The position numbers and the translations under genes are program-made. Below are positions 1-39,575 of a stretch of DNA of 64,000 nucleotides, one piece after another. The stretch is from NCBI GenBank assembly GCA_026129095.1, contig JAHCIT010000002.1:62001-126000 (forward strand), given 5' to 3'. Position 1 is the first letter of the stretch, and each line of letters begins with the position of its first letter. The notes beneath the pieces are model-generated. The model saw only the letters and a list, made by a program, of their open reading frames with translations, ran no database searches and had not been told where the DNA came from. Source of the DNA: Deltaproteobacteria bacterium. Lineage in GTDB: Bacteria > JAGRBM01 > JAHCIT01.

Positions 1-3000
1 GGTCAGCTGGTCCATGGACTGCAGCGGCGTCGACGTGCGCGGCACCTGGTTGTTCACGATGAAGGCGTAGTCTTCACGTGCAATCAGGTCGGCAAGGCCG
101 TCGAACAGCGCCGCGTTGACGCCGTTCAGGTTGCCCAGCGTCACCACACCGTCAGCGGCGGTGAAGCCGATGCGGAAGCGGCGGTCGGTGTAGCCGGCGG
201 GCGTGCCAGCCACTTCGGGATCACCACTGGCGCCATCGGTGCAGGCCTCCAGCAGCGATCCGGCGGGGAACCCGGCAGGCGGCGAGCAGTCGAAGACGAT
301 GTTGTCGACTTCAGTGCTCGGGCAGTTGGTCACACAGGCTGCCACAGCGGGATCGTCAAATACCGACATCCACGGCGCGCCGCCGCCGAATGTCGTGTCG
401 AACACACCCGCCAGGGCCGCATCGCCAATGGTGCCGTTGCGGTTCAGGTCGTCAGTGATGAGCGGATCGTACCGGTTCTCGTCATCCTCACGCACAATCC
501 GCGGATTGACCGAGGCCGAACCCGGAATCAGCGCCTGGATGTCGGCGAACAGGGCGTCGGCGATGGTCACGCCGGTCGTGTATTCCTGTCCGCAGAACTC
601 GCGGTCGATGGCACCCGAGCCGCAGCCGGGGGCGTTGCCGAGATCTGTCGGATCGATCGGGCCCGTTCCCGACACCGGATCGTTGTCCAGTGCGTAGAGC
701 TGGGAGCCGATGATGCCGGAGATGAACGGCAGCGCGCCGATAACCTTCGACTCCGCATCGCCAGCGAGCAGGACCGACAGGCTGCTGAACAGATCCTCGC
801 GGAGGATCGGCTGCAGCGGCCGCTCGACCAGCACGCCACGGTCGCGGAAGACCGCCTGCGGGTTGAAGTCGACGCAGGCGTCGTAAGTCACTGCCGCATT
901 GACGCCACGGTCAAAGTCAGCCGTCGCCGTATTACAGTCGGTCGGGTCTTCGATCAGGGTATTGATGAAGTTGCCCACCACGTCGAGGCCGGACCGGTAG
1001 AAGTCACCGGCGCCAGTCGGCGTGTCGATGATGTCGCGCTGGGCGAGACCCACCTGGACCGAGAGGATGTTGTCGATCGTGCGGTCGTGACCGGACGGCG
1101 TTACCACCGTGTCGGTATCGGTCGCAATGTCACGGACGAGCCGAAGCGCCTGGCCCAGGTAGTTCTGGGTGTTGAAGGGGTGTTCAATCCCGTCACGCAC
1201 CGAACCCATCAGGTTCGCCAGCAGATCCTGCATGGCAACCAGCTTGTTGCGGTAGCGTTTGTTGTTCAGCGACTCGGCATTGTCGAACGTCGGCTGCGTG
1301 CTGCTGCCGTCCGTGTAGTCGATCGCCTGCTCGAAGTCGTCCAGAACACCCAGGATCGTGCGGACGAGCGCCTGAGTCGGACCCTCGTAGATGCCGTCGA
1401 CTGCCGTGGCGCCAGCGAGGATCACCCGCTGCTGGCCAGCAGCGTACGTGCCGGGCACGTACGGACGGCTGTCGTAGAGGAGACCGCTCTCATCACCGTT
1501 GTTCGAACGTGCCGAACGGGAGATGATGTTCGCCAGCGCGAGACCGTCGATCTCGAGACCGTGGAGCGTGTTGTTGTCGTCCACGACCGTGCTCTTCGTG
1601 TCACGCGCAGCGGGGGGTACCAGATCGGTCTGCTCGGTGAGGATCTGGATGCCCGGAATGAGCTGCCGGATCAGGTCCGTCTGGATGAACTGCGTCAGGA
1701 CGCTGAACAGGAGCCGCGGATCATCCGAGAACCCTTCGCGCGAGTGGCCCGGGAGCACCGCATTGGCGCCCAGCTCGCCGTCACGTCCGTCGCGGTCACC
1801 CAGCGTGCCGAGCAGTCCGGAGAGCGCCAGGAGCTGGTAGTCAACCGCGTCGTTGATGGCGTTGCCGTCGCAACCGGGGATACCGGTGTTCGAGCAGTCG
1901 GCACCAGCCGGGGTCGGCCAGCCGGACGCATCCACGAAGTTCGGGTAACGGTCGTAACGGTCCTCACGGCCCTGGACAATGAAGTCGTCGAGACCGATCG
2001 CCGCCGGAACCCCGGTAACCGTGATGGTATCGGTACCAGGATCATAGGCCGTCACGTAGGTTGTCACGCCGGTGTTCGCGCCGCTCGTGAAGGTGATGGC
2101 ACGGCCAAGGAGGTCGGTGTCTGCCGGATAGGTGCCGTTGATGCCCGTCACCACAAAGGTGTCGAACGGAGCCGCACCGTCACCCGTCGTGACGGTCTCG
2201 GTTACCGAATCCAGCGTTGGCACACCGGTAGCCGCCGTCAGCCGGGCGAACAGGGTCGTCACCGCCGACAGGGCGCTCCGGGTCGGGCCGTCGTTCAGCA
2301 TCCGCTGGACCGGGCCTTCTTCGGTCTCCTCGAAGCCGTTGGCGCCGAAGATCAGGTTCTCGGCCATCGAGCGGTTGTTCTCGTTGTCCGGGTTCGGCTG
2401 CACCACGAAGGTAATGAGGCCCACCGCACGGTCGAAGAAGCTGTAGTCGGCTTCAGCACCACCGCCCGTATCCACGGCGTTCACGCCACGGTGCAGGTGG
2501 TCCAGCGTGCGGAGCAGCAGGTCCATGCGCGAATCGCGGAAGGGGTTCACCGGCAGCGGCGTCGGGCCGCCGAAGCTGGAGAGCGCGAGGCCAAGGCCCT
2601 CGCCGCCGATCACGTCGCCGCCCACGCAGCCGTTGTAGGGCTCGCGCATCTGGCGCACACGGTACGAGCAGCTCTGGTCGCCGAAGAGACGCACCGAGCC
2701 ACCGGTGGGATCATCGGCCACATCCAGTCCGGTCACCGTGAAGGTGATCGGGCCCGGACCGGCTGTGTTGGCCGTAATGGTCGCCACGTCGCCAGCGGAC
2801 ACCGATACGTCGGTGGAATCCGTGACGAAGACAAGCTGCTGGCCGGCAAACGCATCCACGCCGATGCTGGCAAGCGAGCCGTCGCCGGCGCCAACCACGA
2901 TGGTCACATCCGTGCCGCCAGTCACCGCATAGCGCCGCTGGTTGCAGTTGAGCGCCATGTAGCCCTGGATATTGTCGTAGGCCGTCAGGAACGGTGCCGA

Positions 3001-6000
3001 CACGTCGTTCTGGAACGTCACGCAGTTGCGGAGCGTGCCATCAGCCGCGCAGTCGTTCGTCGCCACGAGATCCGGGGCAGTCGTACCCGGCCGGGCGGTC
3101 AGAGGGGCACAGGCCTCGTCATATCCGCCGGGCTGGTCGGCGCCACGGGTCTCGATGCAGAGGAACGCGCCCGGGCCCACGCCGCCAGCATTGAAGTTGG
3201 TCGTGGAGGGCGGAAGCGCCTCGCTGTAGATGGCGCCCCAGTTGCGGGCCTCGGCCTGGCCCACGTCACCGGCGTTGTCGTCCGATCCGGTGAGGGCAAG
3301 GTCATTGCCCGCCATCAGCACGCCCACGTTCACCGACGAGAGCGTGACCGCGTAGCGGTTGCCGGCAACCGGCGCCGCGGACAGCGCGTCAAAGGTGAAC
3401 AGGTATTCGGTACCCGCCGCCAGCGCGTAGTTGGTGATCCGGCGGGTTTCCCCTGCTGCCGGACCATCCAGGAAGGTGATGAGGCCGCCTGTGTAGAAGC
3501 CCGCCGTGGTGGAGAGCGTCGTCAGGGCCGTATCGCCACGGACCGTCGTGGTCGCGTTGTCGGCGCCCAGAGCCTCCGCTTCCTCGCGGGCCGGATTCTG
3601 GTCCAGCGGGCCGCCCGTGAAGCCGCGGCCGATGCCGTTGACGTCCGGAGTGGCCGGGCAGTAGGCGACGCCGCCTGCACCCTCCGGGGTCTCCGTGACC
3701 AGCGTGCGGTTGGTGCCGTCGTTGTTGCCCGACGCACCACGCGCACCCGAGAAGGCATCCAGGAGGATGAGCGTCAGGTCTTCGCTGGACTTGAGCAGCT
3801 CGCCGCCCTTGATGTCGCGGCCGTTGGCGCCGGGCGCGTCATCCACGCCGCAGGCGCGAACCGCACGCAGCAGGTCGAGGATCTGCTGGGCAAGGCCCGA
3901 TGCGCCGAGCGCCTGGACAACCGGGATGATGTCGTCGATCACGCCATCGGGCGCCGGGTTGCCGTCACCATCCGGATCGGCCAGCGCGCGCGCGGCGGCC
4001 GTCGAACGGGTGATGTCCTGCGGGTCCGGCACGGTCAGCGTGCCGTTGATCGGCTGGATGTCCTCGGCGATCTTCAGCGTGAGGAGGAGGATGTAGTTCA
4101 CCGCGTCGGTGGCCGACATGACGGCGATCTGTTCCAGCGCCTCGCGCACGACGGACTGCTCGAACCGGATCAGGCCGCCGCCCGAACCGATGGCGAACGG
4201 GGCGTCGAGGATCATGGCCAGGTCAATACCGAGCCGCGAAACCGACAGGAGCCGCTCGTCGGTGCCGTTCGGGTAGCCGTTGTTCACGTAGCAGCCGCCC
4301 TTGCGGGTCAGCGTGTCGCCCTGGGCGGGATCACATTCGGCGAAGATCGAGTTGATCCGGTCCTGGCTGTCGTAGCCGAAGCGGAGCGCCGTGTTGATCA
4401 CTTCCGGCAGGATGTCGAGGGCCGCCTGGTCCACGGCAATGCCGTCGCCACCGTTCGGGCCGCGGTTGCCGCCGCAGTTGTACGCACCCACCGGGTTGCC
4501 GGGGTAGTCGTCGATGTCGTCGGCGCCGCCGGGGCCGATGTCATTGGCCTCGAAATACTGCGTGTTCGGATCGTCGAACAGGCCGTCGATCAGCACACGG
4601 ACGTACTGCCGGTTGTCGCCGGGGTTGAACGAGCCGCAGGTGTTGTCGCGGAAGTTCTGGTGGCGCGGATCCTTCGGAGCCGTCTCCACGAGCTGCGCGA
4701 CCACGTTGAGGAGCACCTCGATCGGCGTGCGGCCGGCGAAGTAGGCCTCGCTGCAGGCCTTGGTATTGACCGAGGTGCCGTCAGCCGAGACGTTCTCCTG
4801 GACCGGCGAGGACTTGCCCACGCGGGTCAGCAGCACGTTCAGCGCGTCGGTCGTGTAGTCGAGCGACGTGCGGAACTGGGCCGGGTCGTTGTCCAGGTTC
4901 GGGTCGATGGTGGCGCCGCCCAGCTCGGTGATCACGCGCAGGATCGGCGGGTTCACCGTGTAGGGGTTCGGCGGCTGGTCCGCGAAGCCCGTGTTGCGGA
5001 CGTTGTTCACGTAGTCGAACGCGGTCAGGTCGCTCACGTTCGTGCCCGGGTCGAGGATATCCGCCAGGCGGTCGATCACGTCTTCCAGCCGGTTGTCGCG
5101 GAGCACCAGTTCGATCGCCGGGAGGAGCTTCTCCAGGACCGACTGCTGCACGCCGAAGGTGAACGGCGGGAAGGGGATGCCGCGCGGATTGTCATCCGGG
5201 TCGTCCGAGATCGCATGGAGCAGCGGGAAGACCGCCGTCAGCACGCTGTTGACGGTGGTTGTCGCGCCGTTCTTCAGCGTGATCGTCTGGTTCGGCAGCG
5301 ACACGCCGTTCGGCCCCATGATGTAGGTGGACCGCATCAGCAGGTTCATGCGCGAGTTCTGCCGGTCGTCGGGGCTGGTGAGCAGCTCGTAGTCCGGATT
5401 CGGGATGGCGGCCAGGGGCTCTGCCATCAGGCCGGTGCTGCCAATCTCGTCGCTCAGGAGGTCGCGGGTGATGAAGCTGACAGCTTCCAGCACCGTGGCG
5501 CCACGCGGGGCGAGCGGGTTCGTCGCTTCACGCGGATATTCGCTGATCGCGGCGCGCACGAGGTTCAGCAGGCGGCTGATGAACTCGACGCCGTCGGCCG
5601 GGTTGTCGTTGTCCGACAGTTCGTAGATGAGGTCCATCATGCCCTGGAGGCTCGGCGCATCCTGGATGTCGGCCAGCGTGTTCGGGCAGATACCGGTCGC
5701 CGGGCAGACCAGCGAGTAGCGGTCGGCGGCCGTCGGGTAGGAGCCGACATAGGAGGGATCATTGAAGTCTTCCTGCGGGTTCGCCATGGACTCCTCGATG
5801 AGGTGCATCAGCGACGAGATCACTTCCCGCTCGCCGAAGCGGCCATCGTTGTCGAGGTCCATGAACAGCAGGTGGTCGGCCAGATCGAAGATCGGCTCCA
5901 TCGAGGGACCCTGCGGCGGAACCACGCGGAACGCGCAGCCCGCGCCTTCGCAGCCGCCCACGCTTGTGCAGGCGGTGGAGAGGAGCTGGTTTACGGTGTA

Positions 6001-9000
6001 GGCGTCACCCGCACCGGACACCGCACAGGGACCGGGCACGCAGCCGGCTGCAAAGGTAAACTCACCGGTCACATCGTCGAAGGACGTCACGGTAGCGGTC
6101 TGGAGGACGTTCACTCCGCTCAGGATCCGTAGCGTCTGGCCGGTGTAGAGGGCCGGGTCATGGCCAATCGTCGTCGAGTCTTCCAGTGTCGTTGCGGTGA
6201 TGCCGCCGTCTTCCGTTGACGTGTACACGCCGCGGAAGGGCTCGGTCTGGATCTGCGTGTCACTGTTGACAACCGTCACGCGGGCACGGCCGCCGGCGCA
6301 GGCTCCGGTGACGATCTCGATGTAGTCACCCGGCTGTGTATTGATGAAGGAGTCTTCCTCGCCGGGGTTCGACACCGGGAGGAATCCGCCCGTGGCCGAA
6401 TCACACACGCTTTCGCCGGCCACCGGCACCGGGTTGATGATGAGGTCGATGCCCGACACCCGCGCATTGAGCGTGTTCGTGTCGGCAACGGTCACGTCGG
6501 TCGCCCGCATGCGGAGCGACTGCTTGCTGTCGAGGGCGTTCTTCACCATCGGCAGCGTGTTCTTCACGGTGCCCGGATCGTCGTAGCAGTTGTACTGGTT
6601 CACGCCCACGTTGCATGGCGTGGCGGCCTCGGCCGGGTCACGCATGATCTCCTCGAGGAAGATCGAGGAAAGCGTTGCATCGCCCGGATCGGTACGCGGA
6701 CCAGCCGGGAAGTTCTCGCGTGCACGCGGATTGATGATCGCCTGATCGTCCAGCAGCGGCAGGAGGTCGTCCAGCACGCCGTTGTCGAGCAGGATGCGTC
6801 CCACGTTCGCCAGGATCACGACCGTCGAATCGGACGGACCGGTTCCGTCCACATCCTGCAGCAGGGTGCCGAGGACGATGGCGAAGTCGGTGCGGGAATC
6901 CAGGTAGAACGCCTGCCGCGGGTTCGAGGCGACGGTATCATTCGGCGCGCCGAGCAGCAGCGAGGTGTGGAAGTTCAGGTTGTACAGCACGCCTGAGTTG
7001 GAGAGCTGGTCCAGCGTCAGGGTGCGAAGTTCGGTCGGGTCGCTGATGAGGCTCACCACGGCCGGGTTGGACGAGATGATGCCCAGGGCGCCCGAGAGCA
7101 GGCGGTCAACCGCCGACTCGACGATGTTGAACTGGACCGCCGCCACGGAGCTGCGGCCCACGCGGTCGTTGGCGGCCACTTCAACACGGTAGGCCATGTC
7201 CTGGCCGGGACGGCACTGGTCGTCGCCGTCGGCGTGGTTGTCACCGCACGAGAGGTCAACATCCAGCGGCCGGGCCGGGACATCGCCGGTGAGCAGCGCC
7301 GCCTGGGCCTGGCCGAGGCTGGTCTGCGTGGCCAGAAGCGACTGCGCCGCGCCAGCGGTGTTCTCGCTGTTGCCGGTCAGCCGGTCGGCGAAGATCCGGT
7401 AGTCGCCGCGCTGGTGGGCGGTAACGTTGTCCTCGTCTTCGCCGTTGTTGTCCAGGCGGGTCACCGCGATGAACGAGCGGTGCTGCGCCGGCAGCGTGGA
7501 CGAGGAGCCGAGGAACAGGGTCTGGTCGGTCATGAACACGATCGGGTTGGCCGCGACCGAATCCTGGTTGTTCACGACGCCCTGGATCACGATCGCCGGC
7601 GGGAGCGTGTCGCGGATGACGGCGAACGGCACCACGGTCTGGTTGCCCGACAGCGGGTCGTTCGGGTCGCTCAGCACCGAGTCAATGGCGATGAACAGGT
7701 AGCTGTTGATGCCCTCGACCGGCACGGAGAGGCTCGGTGCGCTCCACACATAGGCGGACTGCACGAACATGCCCAGCGCATCGGCCGGGAGCGGCTTGTC
7801 GAGGGTCAGGTCGAACGGGGCAAGACCTTCGCAGAAGGTGCCCGTCACGTCCAGCGCCTCGCAGGCGGTAATGCGGAACAGGCCGACGTTCGGGGACTGG
7901 CTGCCCTGCAGCGACGAGAGCGAGATGAAGTCGCCCGGCCGCAGGTTGTCGGTCACGAACACGTCGTCGGCGATCGAGATCACCGAGCTGCCGTTGCCGC
8001 CGGCGACTGCCAGCGTCAGGAAATCACGCGCCGGGTTGCCCGTACCGTTGCCGTCAGCCGGCATCAGGTCGCCCGAAACCTTCACGATCGTCGGGTCGGC
8101 GCCCAGGTATACGGTCGGGGGCAGCGCATCCAGCGAGAGCGTGCGGCCCTGCAGGAAGATGCGGTCGCTGCGCACCGTGCGGAAGTCGAGCTGCGGCATC
8201 ACGCCGGCGCCCAGCGTGTCGAGCGCGCCCACCGAACGGTAGTTGCGGCCGTCGCCGTGGCGCAGGACGAGCTGCGCGTCGGTATCGAGGTCGCAGGCCG
8301 CGGCTGTCGTCGTCACACTGAACAGGCCGGTAGCGGCAACATAGTCAGTGACCGTGAGCACAAGACCTACCGCGCAGGTGCCCGTCGCGCCGGCGTCTTC
8401 CACCGTCAGCGTTCCGCCCACGTAGGCGTCATCCACCGTGGAGAGCCCGGCGACAGCGCCGGTATCAACGTCAACCGGGTTGGTCGGGACGGTCGAAAGC
8501 GCATCCAGCGTGTCAACCATCGTCGCCGTGCCCGTGGCAGCGTCATAGTGGCCGAAGCTGGCCAGCGTGAAGATGTCACCCGGAGCTGGGGCCGGGCTGA
8601 ATGCCGGAGTCACGGTGAAGGTGGAGGTACCGGCATTGTAGGCCGTTACCGTGCGTGTCTGGCCGACGGCAAGGCCGTCGGTGAAGGTGATGAGATCACC
8701 CACATGGAAGAAGTCCGACGCCGTGCTGATGGAAACCGAAGCCGGGCCCTCCACGGCCCCGGCACCTGTGCCCGCTCCGGACACGAGGCCGGTCGTCACG
8801 GTCGGTCCCTGCTCACCCACGAAGTCGCCGAAGCGGCCGCCGGGGTTGGCGCTGTTGTTCATGTCGAGCGAGCGCACGACGATCGGGGTGTTCGGGTTCG
8901 ACGAGTTGGCGTCGTTCTCGCACATGATCGCACGCGGCGGTGTGTTGCCGTCAGCCGTGGCGCTCGTGACGAGAGCGGGGGTGTCTTCCACCACGCAGTC

Positions 9001-13443: not shown

Positions 13444-13849
13444 TGTCGCCACTCCTCCAGTTCCGCTTCCGGTCTCCGGCTGCATTCCGCTTCCGGCTGC
13501 CTTCGCGGCAATTGGTATCTTTTGTCTTTCCCGCCGTCCCGGCTTCTCCCGCCGGGCGGCGCTCTTCAACGCTATTGACGGATATGGCATCCCTCTCCCC
13601 TGATTGGGAGAGATCCGCCTGATCCGCATCACATCGGCTTTCGTTCCGGAGACGAGAGGCTTTACGCCCGCGTCCCCGCGGTGTGCCGACAGTCACCTTT
13701 CTATTGGTGGTCCTAAAATGGCAGGTCACCATTCATTCCGGCAAGTTAACGGTTGTAAATCCCTTGTTCATATTCCTCTACATCTTCACCTTGGGTGCTC
13801 GCGTCAAAATTCGGTATCACAAAAACTGCTGCGTCCATCATGCACTGCG

Positions 13850-27622: not shown

Positions 27623-27649
27623 TGGCCATTACAGTGATGACGCGATGCG

Positions 27650-30600
27650 CTACTGGTTGCTTTGCAGCAGTAGGTCGCCCAGCGCCGTGATCATGTCGTT
27701 AAACGCCGGATCCACCGACTTCACACCCAAAGCCCGGGCCGTATAGTGGTCCATAGTCTGGCCGGTGTTGGTCCGGGGGAGCTGGTTGTTGACGATCCGC
27801 GTGTAGTCCTCAAGCGCGATCAGGTCGGCCAGGACGTCAAAGAAGGCCGCATTGATGCCGTTCACGTTTCCGATCGTCACCCCTCCGTCGGCAGCCGTAA
27901 AGCCGATCTGGAGACGGCGGTCGGCAAAGTTGGCATTCGGTACTCCGTTGGCCAGCGGAGTTCCGTTGGCGGCCGTGCAGTTCTGCAACACCGTTCCGTT
28001 CGGAGTGCCCTGCCGGGGCGAGCAGTCGAAGGCGATGTTATCAACCTCGATGTGCGGACAAACGCCCGGACTCGCAATGATACAGGCCGCCACCGCTGCC
28101 TGATCGAAAATCGACATCCAGGGGCCTGCCGCCGATGAGCCAAAGCCGGCCAGCGTCACGCTGGCTCCATCGAGCCGGCCGTTCCGGTTCATGTCATCGG
28201 TGAGCAGCGGGTCGTACCGGTTCTCGTCCTCATCCGGGATCAGATCCTGGATGTCGGCGAACAGGGCGTCAGCCATCAGCACGCCGGCCGAGTATTCGAT
28301 ACCCCGGTAAACCACCGTTGCCGTTCCGGTGGGCGGCTTGTTCTGGATCTCCTTGGTGTACGAATCGCGCACCAGGGCAGCCAGGAACGGCAGCGCACCG
28401 GTGATCTTCGAGTTGTCGCCACCGGCAAACAGTTGCGACAGGCTGGTAAAGGCCGTTGGATCCAGGATCGGCTGGATGGGCCGCTCAACGAGCGGTCCCA
28501 CGTCGCGGAACACCGCGTTCGGGTTGGCCACGTGGTTGGCGCTTCCGATATCGCACTGGGGCAGGGTGCTGGTCCCGCTTCCGCGCTGGAACCCGTTGGT
28601 GACAGCATCGCAATCGGTCGGGTCTTCCACCAGCGTGTTGATGAAGTCGGCCACCACGTCGAGCGCCGACTTGTTGGTATTCAGGGGATCAACCACCCCG
28701 CGCTGTGCGAGGCCTACCTGAACCGACAGGATCTTGTTGATGCTGCGGTCGACAGTGGGGCCAGCGGATGTATCCAGCACGATGTCATAGAGGATGGAGA
28801 GCGCCTTGTTCAGGTGCTTCGGACCTCCTGTGGCGCCGGTCAGCGTGCCAACGAGATCCTCGATCGCCACGAAGCGGCTCCGCTCCATGCGGTTATTGAG
28901 ACTCGAACTGGCCGTCGCACCGAACGGCGGCTGAACACCGGCTGTCGAATCGTAATCGCGGTTCGACTCCCACTGGTCCAGAATGCCGAAAACCGTCTTC
29001 ACGAGGCCCTGTATGGGGCCTTCATAGACGCCGTTGGGCGCCGCACCGAGGTTGGCCAATATGCCGCCCTGTGCGGCAGGGAACGAAGCAGCCGGCCAGT
29101 TACACTCGCCGCACACGCCCTCCTCGCCGCCGTTGACCGACTTGGCGGTCCGGCGGGTAATGCGCGACAGCGCCTTCGCCTCGATCTTGTTGCTGATCAG
29201 CGGGGCGTTGGCGGCTTCCGGATTGGCCCGGACGTCCATGGCGCTCATCGGCACCGCGGTCGTCGCCTCGGAAATGATCTGAAGCCCCGGCACCAGATTG
29301 CTGATGTATTTCTCCTGCAACATCTGCGAAACGCCGCGGAAGAGCACCCCCGGGTCATCGGACCATCCTTGCCTCGCCGCGCTGGCGGTGCCGTTGATGC
29401 CGGAAATGTTGTCCGCGCCGTCCTGGTCGCCCAGTATGGCCAGCAGCCCCTGAACCGCGAGCAACTGGTAGTCCACCGCGTCGTGGATGCCGTTGCCATC
29501 GCAGGTGGTGGCGCTGTTGATACAGTTCGCCCCGGCCGGCTCGGCCCAGCCTGATGCCGCAATGAAGTTCGGGAAGCGGTCCAGCGGATCCTCGCCGCTC
29601 ACGCCCGGAACGGCCACGGCAGCCGCTGTCTGCGAGAACAGGTTCAGCGTCCCGGCGAGCGCGCTACGCGCCGCCGAATCGTTCAGGAGCGCCTGCAGGG
29701 GGCCGGTCTCGCCGGAGGACGGACCCGCCACGCCGAACATGAACGTGGACAGAATCGACGGCTTGGCCAGCAGGGTATCGGGCGTCCCGATCGTATTGAT
29801 CAGGTTGCTCAGACGGCGGCTGAAGGATGACGTGGTCAGGTTCACTTCGTTGCCACCGTCGGCAAGGAAGTTGAGCTGCCGGAGCATCAGGTCCAGCCGC
29901 GAATCCCGGAAGCTGTTGGTCTGGATCGGATCCAGGCCGCCAGAGGACGACAGCCGTACGCCGAAACCGGTACCGCCGAAGGCGACACCTCCGACGCAGC
30001 CGTTGTAGGGCTCGCGCATCTGGCGGATGCGGTAGGAACATTTGCCGCCGCTGGTAAAGCCTGCCGGGTTGCGCTGGTCGCAACCGCCCATGGCAAGCGC
30101 GACCACGTTGCCCAGGTTTCCGGATGTCGTGTTGTTGAACCGTAGATATCCGCCGGTCGTGCTGGGAGTGCCATTGTGATAGGGCGCTGTCCCGGCTGTG
30201 TCACTCGACAGAATCACACCGCACGCTTCGTCATAAGGCGTGAAGGTCTGCACCACGCAGACAAAGCCGTTGACACCGACACCCAGCTGACCGAACCGGC
30301 GGCTCGGCGCGACAATGGTAAAGGTCACGCCAGCGGCTGGAACTGCCGAGAACGGAGGCGTTACCGTCAGCGTCGTCCCGTTATAGGCCGTAACGACCCG
30401 GGAACGGTTGATGAGAGCTCCGGAGGTGATTGTCAGCAGGGAGCCAACGTAGTCGCCCGCGACTCCGCTTAGCCCGCTGCCAGCGAACACGCTTGCCGTT
30501 GGCGCAGGTGCGGCTCCGACAGTACTGTTCACCGCGCTGGCCCAGTTGCCCGCGAATACGCGGAAGTTGTTGGCAACACCGCCGATGCCACCTTCGTTAT

Positions 30601-33600
30601 CTTCGACGAACACACGCAGGTCGTCACCAGCAGTAATGACACCGCGATTCACCGGATAGCTCGCGCTGGTGGCGCCGTTCGGATTGCTGTCCAGAATGCC
30701 GCCAGCGAGACCCGGGCCGCCTGGGGCAGGCCCTTCCTGCGGGCAGAGGCCGGCACCATCGGTACTGGGTGCCGTGCCACCGGCAAGCGTGGGATCGGAA
30801 GGCGTATAGCCGCCAAGGGCCGTGTCCTTGAGGGCGCCCGAGAACGCGTCCAGCATCGTCAGGGTGACGTCCTCGGCCTGGAGCAGCAGCTCGCCGCCAC
30901 GGACATCCTTTTCGCCGGAGGGGATATCCACACCGCAGGCCCGCACCGCACGGAGCAGATCCAGCACCTGCTGGGTCATGCCGGCCGCCGAAATCGCCTG
31001 GATGAGCGGAACGAGGTCGTCCACGATGCCGTCAGGCAGCGGGTCCCCGTCCCCGTCCGGATCGGCCAGCGCCCGGATCAGCGAGGTTGACCGGGTGACA
31101 TCCTCGGGATTCGGGATCTTCAGGGTGCCGGTCACCGGAGCGATACTCTCGGTCATCCGGTCGAACAGCAGCACCACCTGGTTCACAGCCTGGGTCGAAG
31201 TCAGGTTGGCGATGGCCTCGATGAATTCGCGGGTGAGCGACTGCTCGAAGCTCACGATACCGGTCGTGCCGCCACCGATCTGGATCGGCTGGTCCATGAT
31301 GAGCCCAAGGTCGATCATCATCCGCTGGCCGGAGAGCCAGCGCTGGGTGCCCGTCGGGTAGCCGTTGTTCTTCTCGCAGGCCGCGCCAACGCAGTTGGCG
31401 AAGATCGAGGTGAGCTGGTCGCTGTTGTTGAACCCGTAGCGGGTCAGCGTGTTGAGAATCTCCGGCAAAATGTCCAGCGTGCGCTGCGGCACGGCAAGGC
31501 CGTCACCCGCGTTCGCCTTCCGGGTTCCGGACGGGGCAGCGCCCGAGCAGGAACCGGTCGTGATATTGTTGTGGAACGCCCGGTTTCCGGCACGGTAACC
31601 GGCTGTAACGCCGGGAGTCACGTCGTCCCAGCCATTCACGTTGCTGGCGTCACCGCCTGCAATCGAGAACGCATTGGGCGCAACGACGCTGTTCGTTGCC
31701 GCTGTGGAGTTGTCATCGTCGGTATCCGGATCATCCGTAAGCGCGTCCAGGATGATGCGGATATAGGTCCGGTTGTCGGACTTGGGATCGCCTTCAGCCA
31801 CGGTCGCATGGCAATCCGGCAGCGTCCGGTTCCGGTAGTCGTAATCCTTGGGATCCTTGGTCGCCGGCTGCGCGAGCTGCGCGACGATATCCAGCAGGAG
31901 TTCCATGGGCGTGCGGCCCTGGAACCACGCCTCGCGGCAGACGTCGGTATTCACCGACAGGAGCACCGGATCGAAATCCTCGCCGCCAGTGTCCGTGCCG
32001 ATCGGCGTCAGGAGGACGTTCAGCGCGTCCACGGTCACGTCTACCGGCGTCTTTTCGCCGGTATCGAAGGTGCCGTTCAGGTTGCCGTCGATCCGCGACT
32101 TGCTGAACTCCATCAGCACGCGCAGGAGCGGCGGGTTCACCGTGTACGGATTCGGGCTGAGCGTGGTCGTGAAGGGCTGCTCGGAGATGTTCCCGGTGTA
32201 CTGGAAGGCCGTGAAGTCCGAGATGCCGGACCCGGGATCCAGAACCGAGCTGAGGTTCAGCAGCAGGGTCGGGAACCGGGAATCCTGCAGGAGCGTGTCC
32301 AGCGGGGTTTCCAGCTTGTCGATGATCGACTTCTGCTCGTTGGATCCGGGAGGGACAAGCACACCACAGGCCGGGTTTCCGCAGCCGCGCGGATTGTCGT
32401 CCGGGTCGTTCGCAAGCGTATGAATCAGCGACAGCGTCGCCTCGATCGCGTTGTCGGCGGTCGGGTTCGACGGGCTGCCGAAATTGATCGTCACCGGCGT
32501 CCGGTCGTAGGACAGCGCCGCGATGGAGCGGAGCAGAAGGTTCAGCCGCGTGTTCTGGCGGGTGGTCGGCGAGGTCATGCTCACCAGGTTCGGGTTGGTG
32601 AAGCTCGGCTCCTGGAGCAGGTTCTGGAACATGTCCTTGGCGATGAAGCTCTTGGCCTCGATGTTCGTGGCGCCCTTGGGAGGACCGCCCGGATCGCCCG
32701 CATCGTTGTGTTCCTGCAGGAGGAAGTTGACGAGGTTCAGCACCTGCGAGACGAACTCGGTACCGTCATTGGCATCGTTGTTGTCGGCCAGCTCGGCAAA
32801 CAGGTCCAGCGAGCCCTGGATGTTCCGGCCCCGCGTGAAGTTCAGCATCTGGGCGGCCGTCGTGGCGGTTGCGGCGCACGGATCAGCTACGCCGTCGTTG
32901 GCCGGACAGAGCAGCGAAATACGGTCGTAGGTCGTTTCCGCGCCGTTGGAAATGTTCCGCATACCCTCTTCAATAAGGTGCAGGATCCCCTGGATCGCCT
33001 CGCGCTCGCCGCCGCGGCCGTCGGCGTCAAGGTCGGCGAACAGCATGATGTCGGCCAGCTCGATCACGGCGTTGAGCGCCGGACCTGCCGGAGGAGTGAT
33101 CCTGAACTCGCAACCGCCGCCACAGTCGGTCACGCAGTTGGCTGACCAGTTCGTCGTCACCAGCACCGTGTTGCTGGTGATCGACACCACTTCAGCCGTC
33201 GATGTGTTGCAGGAACTTCCCGTCTGCGTGATCGTCACGATGTCGCCGGGCTGCACGTTCACGACCGACGTCGGAACCGCACCGACCGGCTGGAAGCTGC
33301 CGGTCGCGGAGGTCACCGTCGTCGCTGTCAGCACGGCATTGGTGCCGGAAACGCGCGGCCGGGTGGAGGCGTTCTTCATCCGCAGCGAATCGCCGTAGTC
33401 CAGTGTCGCCTTGATGGCGTCAAAGGTTTCCTTGACCGGGCCCGCGTTGGCGAAGCAGGTGTATGCTTCCTGGGCATGGGGACCCACATTGCAGGCGGCA
33501 CCTGTTTCGTTGGGATCCCGGAGCAGTTTCTCCATGAAGTCCGACATCTTGCTGGCATCACCCTGATCCGGTCCGCTCGGGAAGTTGGTCCGGGCCTTGG

Positions 33601-36600
33601 GGTCCAGAATCCGCGTGTCGTCCAGAATCGGGAGGACATCGTCAAATACGCCGTTATCCAGAAGGATGCGGACTACGTTGGCCAGCGTGACGGCCGTGGA
33701 CTGGGCCGAGCCGGAACCGTCCGGATCGGTCAGCACCGTGCCGAGCAGGCTGCCGAACTTGTCGCGGGAATCCAGATAGAAATTCGCGCGCGTGTTCACC
33801 GTCGCACTGATCGGCTGGTTCGGATCACCCAGCAGCGTCGCCATCCGGTAGTTCAGGTTGTAGAGCACACCGGACGTCGAAACCTGGTCCAGCGCCAGGG
33901 TACGCAGGCCGGTTGAGTCACTGAGCGCGCTCACCAGCGCCGGGTTGGTCGACAGCACTCCAAGCGCGCCGCCAAGAAGGGCGCCGGCCGTGGATTCAAC
34001 CAGCGAGAACGAGGCCTGCGCCGTGCTGCTCCGGTTGCCGCGGTCCACGGCGAAGGAGACAATTTCGTAGGTCAGCGGGCTGCCAGGAGTGCACTGGTTG
34101 TTGGGATTCCCGTCCTTGTTGGTGCAGGAGAAGTCGCAGGTCAGCGGCTGGACGCCCAAGGGTGCCGCCCGCGTCGCCGCGGTCGCCTGCCCGAGCGCGT
34201 TGACGCCGCTCAGGGCCGATCCGGCCGTGCAGCTATAGCCCACACCGGCGGTGTTGTCGGCGTTGTCCAGGCTGGAGGCCCGGTTGGCGCCCTCGGCCAC
34301 GCCGCTGCCCGTGTATGCAAAGTGTTCGGTCGCCGGGACGATCACGAACGTATCGCCGACGAGAACGTTCTGCGGATAGGCGGGGTTGACGGTAATCTGG
34401 CCGCCGACGGTCGAGGCCGTGATAGAGCGGGTCACACCCAGGTTCTGGGCGGAACCGCCGCCGGTCGTGAGGAACCGGACTTCACGCCCGACACACTCGT
34501 TGACCGCCCTGCGGCAGGCGTTGGTCGCCGTCGTGCTGGTGAATACCGTCGGACTTGCGCCAGTGGTGACCGAGTAGACAAGACCTTCACCGTTGGAATC
34601 GCTCCGCTTGACACTGATGTAGGACCGCGGGTTCGACACCGACGTACCGAAGAACATGGACGAGTCGGTGATGAAGACGATCGGATTGACCGACTGCATT
34701 TCCACCGGGTCGAGCGACGACGGATCCACGAAGATGCCCTGGATCACGATCGCGGGCGGCTGCGTGTCGCGCAGCACCGGAATGGAGTAGTTCCGCTCAT
34801 TGCCGAGCGCATCGGTGGCCTTGAACGAGAAGGTGTTGACGCCTTCGGCAGGCACAACGAGGTTGTTCGCCATCCAGATCCAGGCGGCCTGATAGAACAT
34901 GCCCGTCGCGCTCTGCGACAGCACCCGGTTCAGTGTCAGGCCGGTGCCCGTGCAGGCTCCGGCGGCATTGGTCGTGCAGCCCTCGATCTGGTACAGGCCC
35001 ACGTTGGAGCTCTGGTTCGGATCGAGGGAGGAAAGCGAGAGGGCATCGCCCGGCCGCAGGTTCAGGTTCGTGACCGCCGTGCCGGTGACGATCTGGTTCG
35101 TGCCGCCGCCGCCCGAAGCCACCGTGCCCAGCACGTCGCTGGAACCGGCCGAATCGCGCGGCATGATGTCGAAGTTCGTGAACACGCCGCCGCTGCCGTT
35201 GACCAGCACCGTGGGCGGCAGGCCCTCCAGCGTCAGGTAACGGCCCGAGAAGGATACCCGGTCGGCCGAGACGATCGTCTGGCTGAGCGGCGGAATGGTC
35301 CCCGTGGGCAGGCCGGAGAAGGTCAGCGCGGAGGTCTGCTCGCTCGGAGCACCGCAGTCGCCGAAGCGTCCGTTGGCGCTCGGATCGTTTTCACACGGAT
35401 CACCCGTGGCACCGCCAATTTCAGGAGCCTGCGTGCGGATCACGATGGGCGAGTTCGTGTTCGGCGTGAAGTCGTCCATTTCGCAGGCGAGGATCTGGGT
35501 GCCTCCAGCGTTGCGCGGGACGTTATCCACGATGCAGTCCAGCGCGAACGCCGGGGGCGTCGTCGTGGCCGCCTCGAAGTGCTGGACCGTGAAGCTGTGG
35601 GTGGCCGAATTGCCCGCCTGGTCCCATCCGGTGACCGTGAAGCTGGTAATACCGCCCGGCCGGAGCGGCACATTGTCGTAGTGATAGTAACCGCGGTCGG
35701 CGGTAGAGGGCGCCGTCACATCCGCGTCGGTCGCCGGGATCGGGCTGCCACGGGCATCGGTACCGCCCGAAATGGCGAAGGAGTCGTAACCCAGGTAGTC
35801 GGACTGCACACGCACGTAGGTGCGCCCCGAATCCCGCGAGGTCGTATCGTCCACGGTGATGGTGCCGGGGACAAAATCCTTCACAAGGCCGCGGATCGCC
35901 ACCGTTGAGGCGAATGTCTGGTAGGCACCCGCACCGGGATTTGTGGCGCCCTGGGCCCATACCTTCTGGCTCTCGAAACCGGTGGCCGCCAGCGTGCCGT
36001 TTCCGTACTGCGACAGAAGCTGCGGCGGAGTACGGTCCACGATGAGGTTGGTCGTCGCCGGGTAGTGGCAAAGATCGGTGGCGCCCGCCGAGGTGCAGGA
36101 GCTTCCGTCGCGGGTGGCGTTGCCAGTAGCGTCGTTCGCCCGGACCTCGAAGACGGTGTTGCCTTCGGTGAGATCCAGCACGGCCGTGTAGCAGATGGCG
36201 GCAAAGGAAGTGCCAATGCTTTCGTGGTTCAGCGTCACGTTGCTCGGGTTACAGTTGCCGCCCCAGTAGGGCGCCACGATGATCTTGGGGTTGCTGGAAA
36301 CGAGCGCGCCGGTCGCCGCCGCGCCGCGCATGACCGCCGCGGCGGGCGTCGCCGCCACGGTGGGGATACCCGCGCCGGTATCGCCACGGGCAGTCATCGC
36401 CTTCAGCCAGCCATTCCAGGCAGTGCCGCCAGCCAGATTGGTCGCCGCAAACGCCGAGACGTTGGAGGCGCCCGTCGTGCCACGGGCAACGCTGGCATAG
36501 ACCCACTGGGAGGCATCGGTGCTGGTATTGATCATGTTCGCCACAGCAGTGGCCGTGGTGCCCGGAATGGGCGTATTCACCGTCACCACGATATTCGGCG

Positions 36601-39091
36601 CGGTTCCCGACACGACGACGCTGGGGGTGGCATTGTTGACGTACGCAACCTGGATGCTGTTTCCGTCGGTCCCGGCCGCCCTCGCCCGGACCCGGACCCG
36701 GCCGTTGGCATCAGCACCGGCCGTGAACAGGGTCGCGTAGTTTCCGTTGTTGACCGCATCGATAATTTCCTCGGCGGTCGAACGGGCCGTGGCACCCGAC
36801 GTGCGCTCCAGGTTCACCGTGACCGTTCCGGGCGTTCCCGCCACAGTAATGCTCTGGCGCGTAAAATCTGCTCCGGGAAGCACGTACGAAACCGTCGCAC
36901 CATTGCGTGTCGTGTCGCCCGCCGGACCATGGAACCGGATCGCATCGTCCGTGACGCCGGAATCGTCCACGACGATCTGCGTGGGAGTACCCACCGTGCC
37001 GCTCCGCGAGATCATGGTCGTGGTCTCGCTCGTGACCGATGTCTGCGTGTTGGTGGACTTGACTGTCACGCTGGTGACGTTCGATCCCCTGCCGCCGGTA
37101 AAGCTGGCCAGGGCGACGCCGCCGCTGACGGCGTTGCCCGCGCAAGGCTGGATCGAGCACTGGGCGGTCACCAGGTTGCGGGCGCCCGGATGGTTGTTGA
37201 TGAGGTTCACCACTGTCTGGGCAGGTGTGGCATCGGGGAAGGTCACCGTGATGTCGAGATTGTTTGCGCCCCCGATCGTGACGGCGGCCGCGCCGACGGT
37301 CTTGGTCACGGTAAGCTGGTTGCCCCATGCCCCCGGTGCATTGGCCCGGAGCAGCACGTCATCTGCACCACCAGCCGCGCCATTCGTGATTTCGCGTGTC
37401 GCCGCGCCCTGCGGCGGTGCGACAGACGTGCCATCCCAGATCACGCCGGAAACGGTCGCCTGATTCACGAAGCCATGATTGCGCTCCGCGAAGCTCTGGC
37501 CCTTGGTGGTGGTTCCGGACGTCTGGAACCGGAGTTGCTGGACGTCGGCGTGATAAATACCGTACGACACCCCCGTTCCCGCAGCGGTCAGGGGGTGGGA
37601 GAGGTTCATCGTGCTCAAGGGAGCGCCGGCCCTCGGCAGCGCCGGCACGATACGGCGGACATCGCCGCCGTTCACTCCGCTCTGGATCACGAGCAGGTCG
37701 TTCTGGGCCACGTTGAGGGCGGCGAAGTTCTTCTTGGTCGAGGAGGCCGTCGTGCCGCCCGCGCTCACGTCCAGATCGGCAAAATGCTGGATGTAGCCCA
37801 CCGGTCCGAACGGAAGCTGCGTCGGGAAATCGCCCACCATCAGCGGCGAAGCGATGGATGTGCCGTCCGCTCCGCCGGTAAGATTGCGCACATCGCCCGA
37901 CGGGTTAGTGAATCCGCAGCCCGTCAGGTTGTTGGTCACGCCGCTGCTTTCATCCTGCACTGTAATGGCATTGCCGGCCGCGCCACGCACGAGCGACCAG
38001 ACACGGAAAACCGTGCTGCCTCCGGTAAAACTGGTGACGGCGCTGCCGTTATTGGCGAACTGGTCGGCATTGACCGCCGCCACGATCCGCTGCGCCACCA
38101 GTTCCTGGTTCGCCGCGTTGTTGGGCGATGCATCCTGGAAGTGGGTGCCGACAGTGTAGGTGCGGCCTGCGATGACGAAACTCTCGCCTGCATTGAAGAC
38201 GGAGTTCGCCACGGTGATGTCGCAGAAGGCGCGCGTGAAGGCGGTGTTCAGGACATGCGGCGGGATCGAATCGCGCGTTACCAGCAGGTCGCCCACATCA
38301 GGACTTGCCGGCGCGGCGAACGGAAGGTCGCAGTTGCCCGCGCAGTAGTTCAGTGTCGTGCCAATCCGGACTTCCGAACCCAGCGTACACGCCGAGTTTG
38401 CACAACGGAAAAACTCCACGCGGATCACGTGAAGCGTATCCCCGGACACCGCCGGATCAACTGTCAGGTCGACGGCTGGAGAGGCGTTCCACTGGCGCTG
38501 TCCGGAAGCGGCGAGAATCCGTGAGCCTCGGCAGTTGGCGAGAGCAGCATTCAGGTCGGCGGGATCACCGCCGACACCCAGCGCGCCAGCCGATGAAGCC
38601 GGAACCGTCGCCAACGCCGGACACGCCAGGACGCCGGTATAAACGCCGTCAGTAGTATCATTCTGATAGGTATTGCCTGTATCGAAGATGCGGCGGTCCT
38701 CGGTGCCGAATGATCCGCCCGTGGTGTTGTTGTACGGCGGACGGTCCAGCCAGGCGATCACACGGATGGCATTCGCGAGATGCGGATTGCCCGCCGACTG
38801 AACGGCAGCGCCCGTCATGGCACCACCCACTGTCAGCGTGTCGAACACGGTATTCAGCGGAATGACATTGCCGCTGGATACGTTGTACTGGGGTTCGCTG
38901 ATCGTGCCGATGGTGTCGCTGCCGTTCTTGATGTCGATCGCGCTTCCCGCCGTCTCCGGTGCCCGGGTAACGAGCTGCGCCTCGTCCTGCGCGTCATGCT
39001 CACCCTGCTGCCCCATGCCGCAGGCGGCGGCTCCCAATGCCAGCACCATCGCCAGCGCGCTGTTTCTGATTGCCCCGATGATCGTCCGCAT
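27650..39091 (-). CDS. Giant lipoprotein paralog C (~3813 aa; alternative in-frame start at 39190)
   Basis: Track ORF 27650..39322. ATG at 39091 follows AGGAG and gives MRTIIGAIRNSALAMVLALGAAAC (lipobox). The mature N-terminus (GSAIDIK..ISEPQYNV) resembles paralog A (GSAVSIK..ISNPQYQV). The core is shared with A and B. Confidence 0.93.
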   Translation of the reverse strand: MRTIIGAIRNSALAMVLALGAAACGMGQQGEHDAQDEAQLVTRAPETAGSAIDIKNGSDTIGTISEPQYNVSSGNVIPLNTVFDTLTVGGAMTGAAVQSAGNPHLANAIRVIAWLDRPPYNNTTGGSFGTEDRRIFDTGNTYQNDTTDGVYTGVLACPALATVPASSAGALGVGGDPADLNAALANCRGSRILAASGQRQWNASPAVDLTVDPAVSGDTLHVIRVEFFRCANSACTLGSEVRIGTTLNYCAGNCDLPFAAPASPDVGDLLVTRDSIPPHVLNTAFTRAFCDITVANSVFNAGESFVIAGRTYTVGTHFQDASPNNAANQELVAQRIVAAVNADQFANNGSAVTSFTGGSTVFRVWSLVRGAAGNAITVQDESSGVTNNLTGCGFTNPSGDVRNLTGGADGTSIASPLMVGDFPTQLPFGPVGYIQHFADLDVSAGGTTASSTKKNFAALNVAQNDLLVIQSGVNGGDVRRIVPALPRAGAPLSTMNLSHPLTAAGTGVSYGIYHADVQQLRFQTSGTTTKGQSFAERNHGFVNQATVSGVIWDGTSVAPPQGAATREITNGAAGGADDVLLRANAPGAWGNQLTVTKTVGAAAVTIGGANNLDITVTFPDATPAQTVVNLINNHPGARNLVTAQCSIQPCAGNAVSGGVALASFTGGRGSNVTSVTVKSTNTQTSVTSETTTMISRSGTVGTPTQIVVDDSGVTDDAIRFHGPAGDTTRNGATVSYVLPGADFTRQSITVAGTPGTVTVNLERTSGATARSTAEEIIDAVNNGNYATLFTAGADANGRVRVRARAAGTDGNSIQVAYVNNATPSVVVSGTAPNIVVTVNTPIPGTTATAVANMINTSTDASQWVYASVARGTTGASNVSAFAATNLAGGTAWNGWLKAMTARGDTGAGIPTVAATPAAAVMRGAAATGALVSSNPKIIVAPYWGGNCNPSNVTLNHESIGTSFAAICYTAVLDLTEGNTVFEVRANDATGNATRDGSSCTSAGATDLCHYPATTNLIVDRTPPQLLSQYGNGTLAATGFESQKVWAQGATNPGAGAYQTFASTVAIRGLVKDFVPGTITVDDTTSRDSGRTYVRVQSDYLGYDSFAISGGTDARGSPIPATDADVTAPSTADRGYYHYDNVPLRPGGITSFTVTGWDQAGNSATHSFTVQHFEAATTTPPAFALDCIVDNVPRNAGGTQILACEMDDFTPNTNSPIVIRTQAPEIGGATGDPCENDPSANGRFGDCGAPSEQTSALTFSGLPTGTIPPLSQTIVSADRVSFSGRYLTLEGLPPTVLVNGSGGVFTNFDIMPRDSAGSSDVLGTVASGGGGTNQIVTGTAVTNLNLRPGDALSLSSLDPNQSSNVGLYQIEGCTTNAAGACTGTGLTLNRVLSQSATGMFYQAAWIWMANNLVVPAEGVNTFSFKATDALGNERNYSIPVLRDTQPPAIVIQGIFVDPSSLDPVEMQSVNPIVFITDSSMFFGTSVSNPRSYISVKRSDSNGEGLVYSVTTGASPTVFTSTTATNACRRAVNECVGREVRFLTTGGGSAQNLGVTRSITASTVGGQITVNPAYPQNVLVGDTFVIVPATEHFAYTGSGVAEGANRASSLDNADNTAGVGYSCTAGSALSGVNALGQATAATRAAPLGVQPLTCDFSCTNKDGNPNNQCTPGSPLTYEIVSFAVDRGNRSSTAQASFSLVESTAGALLGGALGVLSTNPALVSALSDSTGLRTLALDQVSTSGVLYNLNYRMATLLGDPNQPISATVNTRANFYLDSRDKFGSLLGTVLTDPDGSGSAQSTAVTLANVVRILLDNGVFDDVLPILDDTRILDPKARTNFPSGPDQGDASKMSDFMEKLLRDPNETGAACNVGPHAQEAYTCFANAGPVKETFDAIKATLDYGDSLRMKNASTRPRVSGTNAVLTATTVTSATGSFQPVGAVPTSVVNVQPGDIVTITQTGSSCNTSTAEVVSITSNTVLVTTNWSANCVTDCGGGCEFRITPPAGPALNAVIELADIMLFADLDADGRGGEREAIQGILHLIEEGMRNISNGAETTYDRISLLCPANDGVADPCAATATTAAQMLNFTRGRNIQGSLDLFAELADNNDANDGTEFVSQVLNLVNFLLQEHNDAGDPGGPPKGATNIEAKSFIAKDMFQNLLQEPSFTNPNLVSMTSPTTRQNTRLNLLLRSIAALSYDRTPVTINFGSPSNPTADNAIEATLSLIHTLANDPDDNPRGCGNPACGVLVPPGSNEQKSIIDKLETPLDTLLQDSRFPTLLLNLSSVLDPGSGISDFTAFQYTGNISEQPFTTTLSPNPYTVNPPLLRVLMEFSKSRIDGNLNGTFDTGEKTPVDVTVDALNVLLTPIGTDTGGEDFDPVLLSVNTDVCREAWFQGRTPMELLLDIVAQLAQPATKDPKDYDYRNRTLPDCHATVAEGDPKSDNRTYIRIILDALTDDPDTDDDNSTAATNSVVAPNAFSIAGGDASNVNGWDDVTPGVTAGYRAGNRAFHNNITTGSCSGAAPSGTRKANAGDGLAVPQRTLDILPEILNTLTRYGFNNSDQLTSIFANCVGAACEKNNGYPTGTQRWLSGQRMMIDLGLIMDQPIQIGGGTTGIVSFEQSLTREFIEAIANLTSTQAVNQVVLLFDRMTESIAPVTGTLKIPNPEDVTRSTSLIRALADPDGDGDPLPDGIVDDLVPLIQAISAAGMTQQVLDLLRAVRACGVDIPSGEKDVRGGELLLQAEDVTLTMLDAFSGALKDTALGGYTPSDPTLAGGTAPSTDGAGLCPQEGPAPGGPGLAGGILDSNPNGATSASYPVNRGVITAGDDLRVFVEDNEGGIGGVANNFRVFAGNWASAVNSTVGAAPAPTASVFAGSGLSGVAGDYVGSLLTITSGALINRSRVVTAYNGTTLTVTPPFSAVPAAGVTFTIVAPSRRFGQLGVGVNGFVCVVQTFTPYDEACGVILSSDTAGTAPYHNGTPSTTGGYLRFNNTTSGNLGNVVALAMGGCDQRNPAGFTSGGKCSYRIRQMREPYNGCVGGVAFGGTGFGVRLSSSGGLDPIQTNSFRDSRLDLMLRQLNFLADGGNEVNLTTSSFSRRLSNLINTIGTPDTLLAKPSILSTFMFGVAGPSSGETGPLQALLNDSAARSALAGTLNLFSQTAAAVAVPGVSGEDPLDRFPNFIAASGWAEPAGANCINSATTCDGNGIHDAVDYQLLAVQGLLAILGDQDGADNISGINGTASAARQGWSDDPGVLFRGVSQMLQEKYISNLVPGLQIISEATTAVPMSAMDVRANPEAANAPLISNKIEAKALSRITRRTAKSVNGGEEGVCGECNWPAASFPAAQGGILANLGAAPNGVYEGPIQGLVKTVFGILDQWESNRDYDSTAGVQPPFGATASSSLNNRMERSRFVAIEDLVGTLTGATGGPKHLNKALSILYDIVLDTSAGPTVDRSINKILSVQVGLAQRGVVDPLNTNKSALDVVADFINTLVEDPTDCDAVTNGFQRGSGTSTLPQCDIGSANHVANPNAVFRDVGPLVERPIQPILDPTAFTSLSQLFAGGDNSKITGALPFLAALVRDSYTKEIQNKPPTGTATVVYRGIEYSAGVLMADALFADIQDLIPDEDENRYDPLLTDDMNRNGRLDGASVTLAGFGSSAAGPWMSIFDQAAVAACIIASPGVCPHIEVDNIAFDCSPRQGTPNGTVLQNCTAANGTPLANGVPNANFADRRLQIGFTAADGGVTIGNVNGINAAFFDVLADLIALEDYTRIVNNQLPRTNTGQTMDHYTARALGVKSVDPAFNDMITALGDLLLQSNQ

Positions 39092-39575
39092 AGTCGCTCC
39101 TGATTTCACCCGCACGAAGCAGGTCCGCGCTCCATCTGCGCCGGTTCCGCATCCACTGTGCTGTCCGGCTGTTCTGTTCTTCGCGTCCATGTTCGTGCTC
39201 CTTAAAACGGCTTCCGTATTCGCACACATGCCGGCACGGTTACCATTTAAGGCACCATCGCCGGGGAAGTCCCGCCTCGGTCCAGTCGCAAACAGGGCTG
39301 TGCTTGTTGCAGAACAAAACACAGACCTTCGGCTGACTTATTAAAAGGAATTATAAGGAGGGAACATCAACGATGCAAAGGATTTAACCGTCCGTAACTG
39401 CCCGGCTTTACGATTGTTTTCAACGTGATGCGCCTCATTCGGGTGAGGCGTGTCCGGGCGGGCGGACACGCCAGACAGCGCATCGCGTTATAGCCGCGCA
39501 ATACCTCGACCAACTACCCGGAACTCCAGCGGACTTCCAGGCTCACTGTTGATGCAAAACGTGACAAGGCACTTA

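Follow-up and report, generated by a model that had tools for sequence, protein, structure and literature searches.

A tandem array of giant lipoprotein genes, possibly encoding a stalked coat, in a small bacterial phylum without detected lipopolysaccharide genes

Very large envelope proteins have been described for several microbes, and they form the background to three giant genes (A, B and C) that we analysed in a 64,000-nucleotide (nt) window of a Deltaproteobacteria bacterium (G000:C12:62001-126000, where G000 is the genome of the window and G001-G005 are its five kin). Sequence comparisons support the view that A, B and C are exported lipoproteins of an undescribed family, which by analogy would work like a surface layer (S-layer) or a coat of surface lipoproteins. 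The S-layer protein of the archaeon Pyrobaculum arsenaticum is a stalked protein of 292 kDa with 19 immunoglobulin (Ig) domains (10.64898/2026.08.21.746120). A, B and C resemble it by architecture only, as very large multidomain proteins; there an Ig stalk is combined with a separate lattice-forming part. They differ in being bacterial lipoproteins of ~390-470 kDa with a helical core, encoded in an array of three to four genes, and their lattice is putative. PS2 of Corynebacterium glutamicum is likewise a precedent by architecture only, in this case for a helical protein on an outer membrane free of lipopolysaccharide (LPS). Unlike the giant proteins it is a small single protein, a helical bundle held by a C-terminal transmembrane (TM) helix (PMC12337289), whereas A, B and C have a predicted N-terminal lipid anchor, no strongly hydrophobic segment and a core that matches no PDB sequence.

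Two further systems share only some of these features. Mycobacterial Mce1 (PMC9882608) also combines tandem paralogous genes with an LPS-free diderm and an elongated envelope assembly, but it is made of MCE domains and an ABC transporter; neither is found in or beside the array, and the MCE genes of this organism are located separately. The giant proteins of Omnitrophota are, like ours, secreted multidomain proteins of uncultured bacteria. According to their description (10.1101/2023.11.21.568195) they exceed 30,000 aa and carry many TM regions together with SecA-DEAD, peptidase and hydrolase domains; A-C have no such TM regions, SecA-DEAD or hydrolase domains, and in that text the word 'lipoprotein' does not occur.

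Architecture of the giant proteins

As the initial annotation had proposed, three adjacent giant genes lie on the same strand, each as an uninterrupted open reading frame (ORF; Table 1). Its guess that the array continues past the left edge was also right: the stop codon of C is found at G000:C12:61896 (104 nt beyond the edge), and gene D follows across a gap of 643 nt on the same strand. Together A-D measure ~58 kb, which is 1.6% of the 3.67-Mb genome (completeness 96.65%), and they are kept intact. Where translation starts is uncertain: at 39190 or 39091 in A, at 27421 or 27373 in B and at 13443 in C. Extended signal peptides are suggested by an upstream MDAKN-like start shared among the A orthologues (window 39091-39190) and by a long basic n-region in B (27373). 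The G+C content at third codon positions is 0.75-0.86 for the giant genes, and the long plus-strand ORFs over them (e.g. 1087-6132 and 7234-13578) were discarded as antisense shadows of GC-rich codons.

A, B and C have the same layout: a predicted lipid anchor, a beta-rich half of 1700-2300 aa, a last Ig-like domain and the helical core. The lipoboxes reported earlier on all three genes hold up, as a hydrophobic h-region ending in Cys and followed by G, T or S is seen by inspection in 12 of the 12 family members (10 of which also match the lipobox regular expression). The N-terminus of D is of the Sec type, with the lipobox Cys absent. Two earlier statements about the N-terminal regions were corroborated too: those of A and C are related (28% over 555 columns, E 1e-20 with BLASTP), and the stalk of B contains Ig-like repeats, namely Glucodextran_B and Big_13 domains (Pfam).

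Small accessory modules of 60-80 aa are added to this plan. With hidden Markov models seeded with the A-D proteins' own sequences we counted 2, 4, 7 and 5 BR0599-like barrels and 3, 3, 3 and 2 sheath-domain-II-like modules in A, B, C and D, respectively. In A one barrel precedes the core and one is located within it, and the sheath-domain-II-like modules are in the beta-rich N-terminal half. Several barrels sit in core loops, their number varies among orthologues, and two B-type members of the other family have neither module. The modules recall the baseplate hub BR0599 of phages and gene transfer agents (PF09356, TIGR02218, phrog_778) and the tail sheath domain II (PF17481). Unlike in phage proteins, however, only these accessory modules match, mostly below the curated cut-off (the best Pfam match for BR0599 in C has E 1.8e-13), and the core has no phage homologue; all Pfam, NCBIfam and PHROGs matches are confined to the modules. 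A barrel in the model of A aligns with phage tail and baseplate accessory barrels and also with other small beta-barrels (Z ~5-6, rmsd ~3, ~70 residues), and judging from this model the likeness would be that of a common arrangement only.

In agreement with the initial annotation, no RTX, autotransporter, TPS, SLH or T9SS domain was matched in A-C (Pfam and NCBIfam; SLH at Pfam E <= 0.01). A-C thereby differ from SLH-anchored S-layer proteins, from RTX or type I-secreted adhesins (their N-terminal signal is of the signal peptidase II type instead) and from autotransporter or two-partner secretion adhesins with their C-terminal barrel or TPS domain. Catalytic, toxin, hydrolase and lectin domains gave no match in Pfam, NCBIfam and PHROGs, pilin families none in Pfam or NCBIfam, and the MlaD/MCE domain none in A-D.

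Conservation is distributed unevenly along the proteins. Between A and its G002 orthologue, identity is 41-48% in the first 1000 aa and 62-70% in the remainder; across families the anchor-proximal part of A reaches 26-27% against 38-45% for the distal part. The first 1000 residues of A match in two of the five relatives, both of A's own family. Overall, in A and C divergence is faster in the anchor-proximal half than in the distal core. A constant scaffold with a variable display region had been proposed before: the division into a conserved and a variable part stands, but the orientation is the reverse, with the variable half next to the anchor and the conserved core distal. A stalk that bears an assembly domain would account for this better than a scaffold with a variable tip. 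Of the bipartite plan of S-layer proteins (an envelope anchor and a separate assembly domain), a predicted anchor, a variable stalk and a conserved distal core are seen here, the assembly role of the core being putative.

The conserved core, its distribution and the envelope

The core is a Leu/Asp-rich helical region of ~2100-2400 aa interrupted by variable loops. Pairwise identities are 39.0% (A/B), 45.7% (A/C) and 40.7% (B/C) over 2241-2343 aligned columns, with paralogue BLASTP segments at E 1e-137 to 0. The collinear C-terminal core described earlier was therefore confirmed at 39-46% identity, and 11 of the 12 tested motifs are present in A, B and C in the same order; GGELL..ED fails as written and requires three wildcards instead of two. 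Near-invariant cysteines number 22 (kept in at least 10 of 12 sequences). In A, amphipathic helices lie between the variable loops, together with paired cysteines and DxDxDG-type motifs (5 against a shuffle maximum of 4; B and C are not enriched). No 19-residue segment is strongly hydrophobic: the maximum Kyte-Doolittle mean is 1.53-1.76, and the highest value belongs to the signal peptide of B.

The check for a characterised family covering most of the core found none, as there was no match in Pfam, NCBIfam, PHROG or PDB sequences. In the PDB search query A1 returned 0 matches; the short matches of queries A2 and A3 to designed armadillo or TPR proteins were dismissed as amphipathic-helix noise. 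Foldseek and VIA yielded nothing for the helical parts of the low-confidence model of the A core, and the ESM Atlas held no usable match for the A core or for the helical domain of the C18 lipoprotein (see below), which proves neither novelty nor absence. Complex prediction with the most conserved block of A, B and C ended with a score of 0.00 and returned no answer.

The core is present in six of 41 genomes, i.e. in G000 and its five kin (6/6 of this small phylum) and in 0/35 of the others; D is also matched in 6/6. A profile of 1046 positions run against 1.84 billion representative proteins recovered nine clusters, all at E < 1e-150 and nothing weaker. Seven correspond to proteins of these six genomes; the other two, P0006 and P0011, add to the A- and B-type members. 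Homologues do recur as tandem arrays in the kin: the order is A-B-C-D in G000 and G001, A-B-C up to the contig end in G002, and partial in G004 of the other family (B follows the end of an A/C-type gene on one contig, and D does so on a second). Three paralogues (two A/C-type and one B-type) are found in five of the six genomes; G003, being fragmented and 83% complete, is too broken for paralogue counting. The B-types form a single clade across both families (FastTree support 0.95; unrooted, 12 sequences), so the split between B and A/C predates the families. The two A/C-types of G005 are sisters in the sequence comparison, and the duplication there may thus be independent.

NCBI labels the relatives 'Chrysiogenetes bacterium' or 'Bdellovibrionota bacterium', and there is no settled lineage name. 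The literature searched contains no description of the family or lineage, although supplementary giant-protein tables, outside that search, could list sequences. Pattern scans, which are insensitive, found no relatives in JGI metagenome contigs, viral contigs, phages or plasmids. Near-identical DNA turned up in studies of soil, biofilm, sludge, wastewater and bioreactors. In run X4, contigs of an RNA library are tiled over most of A at >=99%, with one loose end that matches C at 2656-2685; they leave 39342-40675 uncovered and cover the 5' part of B thinly. As evidence of expression they are weak, given that RNA libraries can hold DNA; the contigs cannot rank the genes, and the gap proves nothing. 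In run X8 genes and spacer are covered evenly, in a DNA-like manner, and X19 and X18 gave short scattered pieces.

The context that weighs most, and that was beyond the view of the initial annotation, is the envelope. LpxC, LpxB, WaaA and LptF/G were each detected in 0/6 genomes of the phylum (completeness is 90% or more in five), whereas control genomes were positive; the LptFG search found its target even in the LPS-poor controls Thermus, Deinococcus and Thermotoga. LptD and TamB were not found in G000, the one genome searched, and neither was flagellin. G000 does encode BamA-family proteins, LolA, OmpA-family proteins, a FadL-like porin and two secretins, one of them beside the ATPase gene of a type II secretion system. 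Squalene-hopene cyclase occurs in 6/6 genomes (with the DCDD motif in G000), as do MlaD/MCE proteins (3-4 per genome, on contigs other than that of the array). From its gene content, the phylum reads as a diderm one that has neither LPS nor the Lpt bridge.

Gene D, smaller lipoproteins and neighbouring genes

Two smaller lipoproteins of 1400-1570 aa (C18 and C22; Table 1) are related to each other and have the same layout as A/B/C. The family is found in 6/6 genomes of the phylum, and its profile matched 6/401 genomes, all of this phylum. Their helical domain aligns with part of D (hhalign probability 66-81%, E 1e-5 to 6e-5, exceeding 10/10 block-shuffled controls), and the family profile matches the D orthologue of G003 at E 6e-5; on these profile comparisons the two are homologous. 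D itself has a helical middle related to this family and a long, beta-rich C-terminal third, and in G001 its helical region has two matches (contigs C35 and C44). Where the A/B/C core begins, directly behind the last Ig, D aligns with it weakly (E 0.0046, probability 8%, score 35.2; the highest of 14 controls scored 30.7), and a direct comparison of C18/C22 with the A/B/C core fell short of significance (E 0.11, against 0.079 for the reversed control). That all helical cores descend from one ancestor is plausible from these comparisons, not established.

For the helical domain of C18 (~880 residues, almost all-alpha) a confident AlphaFold model was obtained (pLDDT 76, pTM 0.71). It matches nothing in the PDB clearly: the best structural match has Z 5.0 at rmsd 10.1 with 114/881 residues aligned, and Foldseek gave no match at E <= 0.001, though at 881 residues a single-domain match could be missed. 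The domain is small enough to express and solve, and is a good structural target.

A third helical lipoprotein, C6, has its C-terminal part present in 6/6 genomes and shows no clear match to the core or to the C18/C22 families (best E 0.018). In its region (G000:C6:20532-30621) it is directly followed by the only FadL/OmpP1-like gene found in the genome and by a 670-aa ORF without Pfam match; the locus is possibly a lipid-uptake module.

Upstream of A, the trypsin-like protease gene keeps its position in G001 and G002; with the G000 query it was not found in G003 or G004, and G005 has a weak match elsewhere. A functional link to the array is putative. Apart from the signal recognition particle (SRP) RNA, which is unrelated to the array, Rfam detected no RNA in the window. 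The genome also contains further giant ORFs (3256-9976 aa) that have internal repeats and no relation to the A/B/C core (G000:C20:41686-71616, C1:12132-28748, C9:8233-21114, C12:277627-288126 and C7:17805-27575).

Table 1. Positions of the array, its parts and other features (window coordinates unless a contig is given).
Feature	Position	Strand	Description
ORF A	27650-39322	minus	Uninterrupted ORF
ORF B	13850-27421	minus	Uninterrupted ORF
ORF C	1-13632, left edge open in window	minus	Uninterrupted ORF
Gene A	27650..39190	minus	Giant lipoprotein (predicted); 3813 aa (ATG 39091) or 3846 aa (ATG 39190); lipobox GAAA-C
Gene B	13850..27421	minus	Giant lipoprotein (predicted); ~4507 aa from conserved GTG 27373; lipobox MLS-C
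Gene C	1..13443	minus	Giant lipoprotein (predicted), 4515 aa; lipobox LGG-C
Conserved helical core of A	27650..~34000	minus	Residues ~1775-3890 of ORF translation P0001
Gene D	G000:C12:43194-61253	minus, as A-C	6017 aa; outside window, downstream of C
Sigma-70-like promoter match	39350..39379	minus	TTTGCA-18-TATAAT, 10/12, upstream of A; consensus match alone, 0.3 expected in shuffles
Trypsin-like serine protease gene	39657..40910	minus	Membrane-anchored; directly upstream of A
530-aa protein	42841-44433	minus	Membrane-anchored; carboxypeptidase-regulatory-like beta domains; syntenic in G001, G002
Bacterial small SRP RNA	46180-46277	minus	Rfam RF00169, at start of dnaX
Small lipoprotein C18	G000:C18:118863-123155		Lipobox, Ig stalk, last Ig, helical domain
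Small lipoprotein C22	G000:C22:141706-146415		Lipobox, Ig stalk, last Ig, helical domain
C6 lipoprotein	G000:C6:20532-27350		2272 aa, helical, six DxDxDG-type motifs

A stalked coat and its alternatives

The reading we prefer, with a confidence just short of evenly balanced, is that A, B and C, together with the non-lipidated D as fourth partner, build a stalked multi-subunit coat on the LPS-less outer membrane. After Sec export, lipidation at the conserved Cys and periplasmic disulfide bonding, the subunits would reach the outer membrane and probably its outer face; the type II secretion system is a candidate for this transport. The beta-rich N-terminal half would serve as a variable stalk or spacer, and the conserved distal cores (two A/C-type and one B-type per genome) would pack into a canopy or lattice, decorated by the phage-type beta-barrel modules inserted in core loops. 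Such a layer would support an outer membrane without LPS both mechanically and as a barrier. We favour this because the paralogue set and gene order are fixed, 58 kb are kept intact at a cost, the distal helical half is conserved, cysteines are paired, no catalytic domain was matched, and the envelope context agrees.

Several points weigh against a coat. Lattice, co-assembly and surface exposure are what we infer, and the AlphaFold model of the A core is unusable (pLDDT 42). Three or four subunits of 400-600 kDa would be very costly, and most S-layers consist of one protein (PMC12337289). With gaps of 158-643 nt between them, the array genes could be regulated separately, as would also be fitting for alternative variants. 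The first 500 aa of B are as conserved as its core, and repeats of Ig domains and small beta-barrels are no less typical of adhesins. The six genomes represent one order, so that the link with the loss of LPS amounts to one evolutionary event and is no correlation.

The same proteins might instead form a lipid-anchored adhesion or contact apparatus (for floc, biofilm, kin or prey), in which discrete complexes bind surfaces or cells with their helical heads and phage-type modules. We hold this somewhat unlikely. It explains the Ig and barrel modules equally well, including the varying number of barrels and sheath-domain-II-like modules among orthologues, and it agrees with the other giant secreted proteins and the PilY1 of the genome, with the sludge, biofilm and soil studies that yielded near-identical DNA and with the 'Bdellovibrionota bacterium' label of one relative. 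It does not explain the conserved distal core: in most adhesins the distal part is not the most conserved one. Moreover, paralogue number and gene order are stable, neither expanded nor shuffled, hydrolase, toxin and lectin domains went unmatched, and the many TM segments or SecA-DEAD domains of the Omnitrophota giant predation proteins (10.1101/2023.11.21.568195) have no counterpart in A-C. Still less probable, in our view, is a trans-envelope conduit or carrier replacing the Lpt bridge, where the amphipathic cores of several paralogues would enclose lipid (hopanoid or another outer-leaflet lipid) like the Mce1 needle of six Mce paralogues. The lack of detected LptFG in all six genomes (against its detection in LPS-poor controls) and of TamB in the one searched would suit this, as would the hopanoid cyclase in 6/6, the amphipathic core helices without TM segment and the position of the similar-style C6 lipoprotein directly before the FadL-like gene. 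Against it, MlaD/MCE proteins are already present, A-D have no MCE domain, no ABC transporter or inner-membrane partner adjoins the array, the large variable insertions would crowd the periplasm, and C6 is not detectably related to the core.

Finally, lipoprotein precursors might be freed by the upstream protease and polymerised into filaments, in the way that Bacteroidota type V pili arise from protease-released lipoprotein precursors. The membrane-anchored trypsin-like gene (AGHC and GDSGG motifs) upstream of A in G000, G001 and G002 is what speaks for it. Next to the array the protease was not found outside family f1, however, no pilin family matched, and the subunits are ~10 times the size of a pilin with a helical C-terminus; we consider filaments highly improbable.

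Returning to the coat, these are members of a new protein family that probably has a coat-like job. A wider proposal is unlikely, in our estimate, though of larger consequence: a diderm lineage that can no longer make lipid A and has lost the entire Lpt bridge might build or supply its outer surface with its own superfamily of new-fold lipid-anchored helical proteins (an A/B/C/D hetero-assembly plus the smaller Ig-plus-helical lipoproteins). If true, this would be a new outer-membrane architecture, in which a canopy of proteins, or a conduit for lipid, stands in for LPS and Lpt. Even if A-C were adhesins, they would form a new family of giant surface proteins and mark the phylum. How an outer membrane stays stiff and tight without LPS is an open question for which few lineages have been studied. 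The apparently LPS- and Lpt-free diderm phylum deserves a study of its own, and its giant lipoprotein family, without detectable relatives, is a testable candidate for the missing envelope component.

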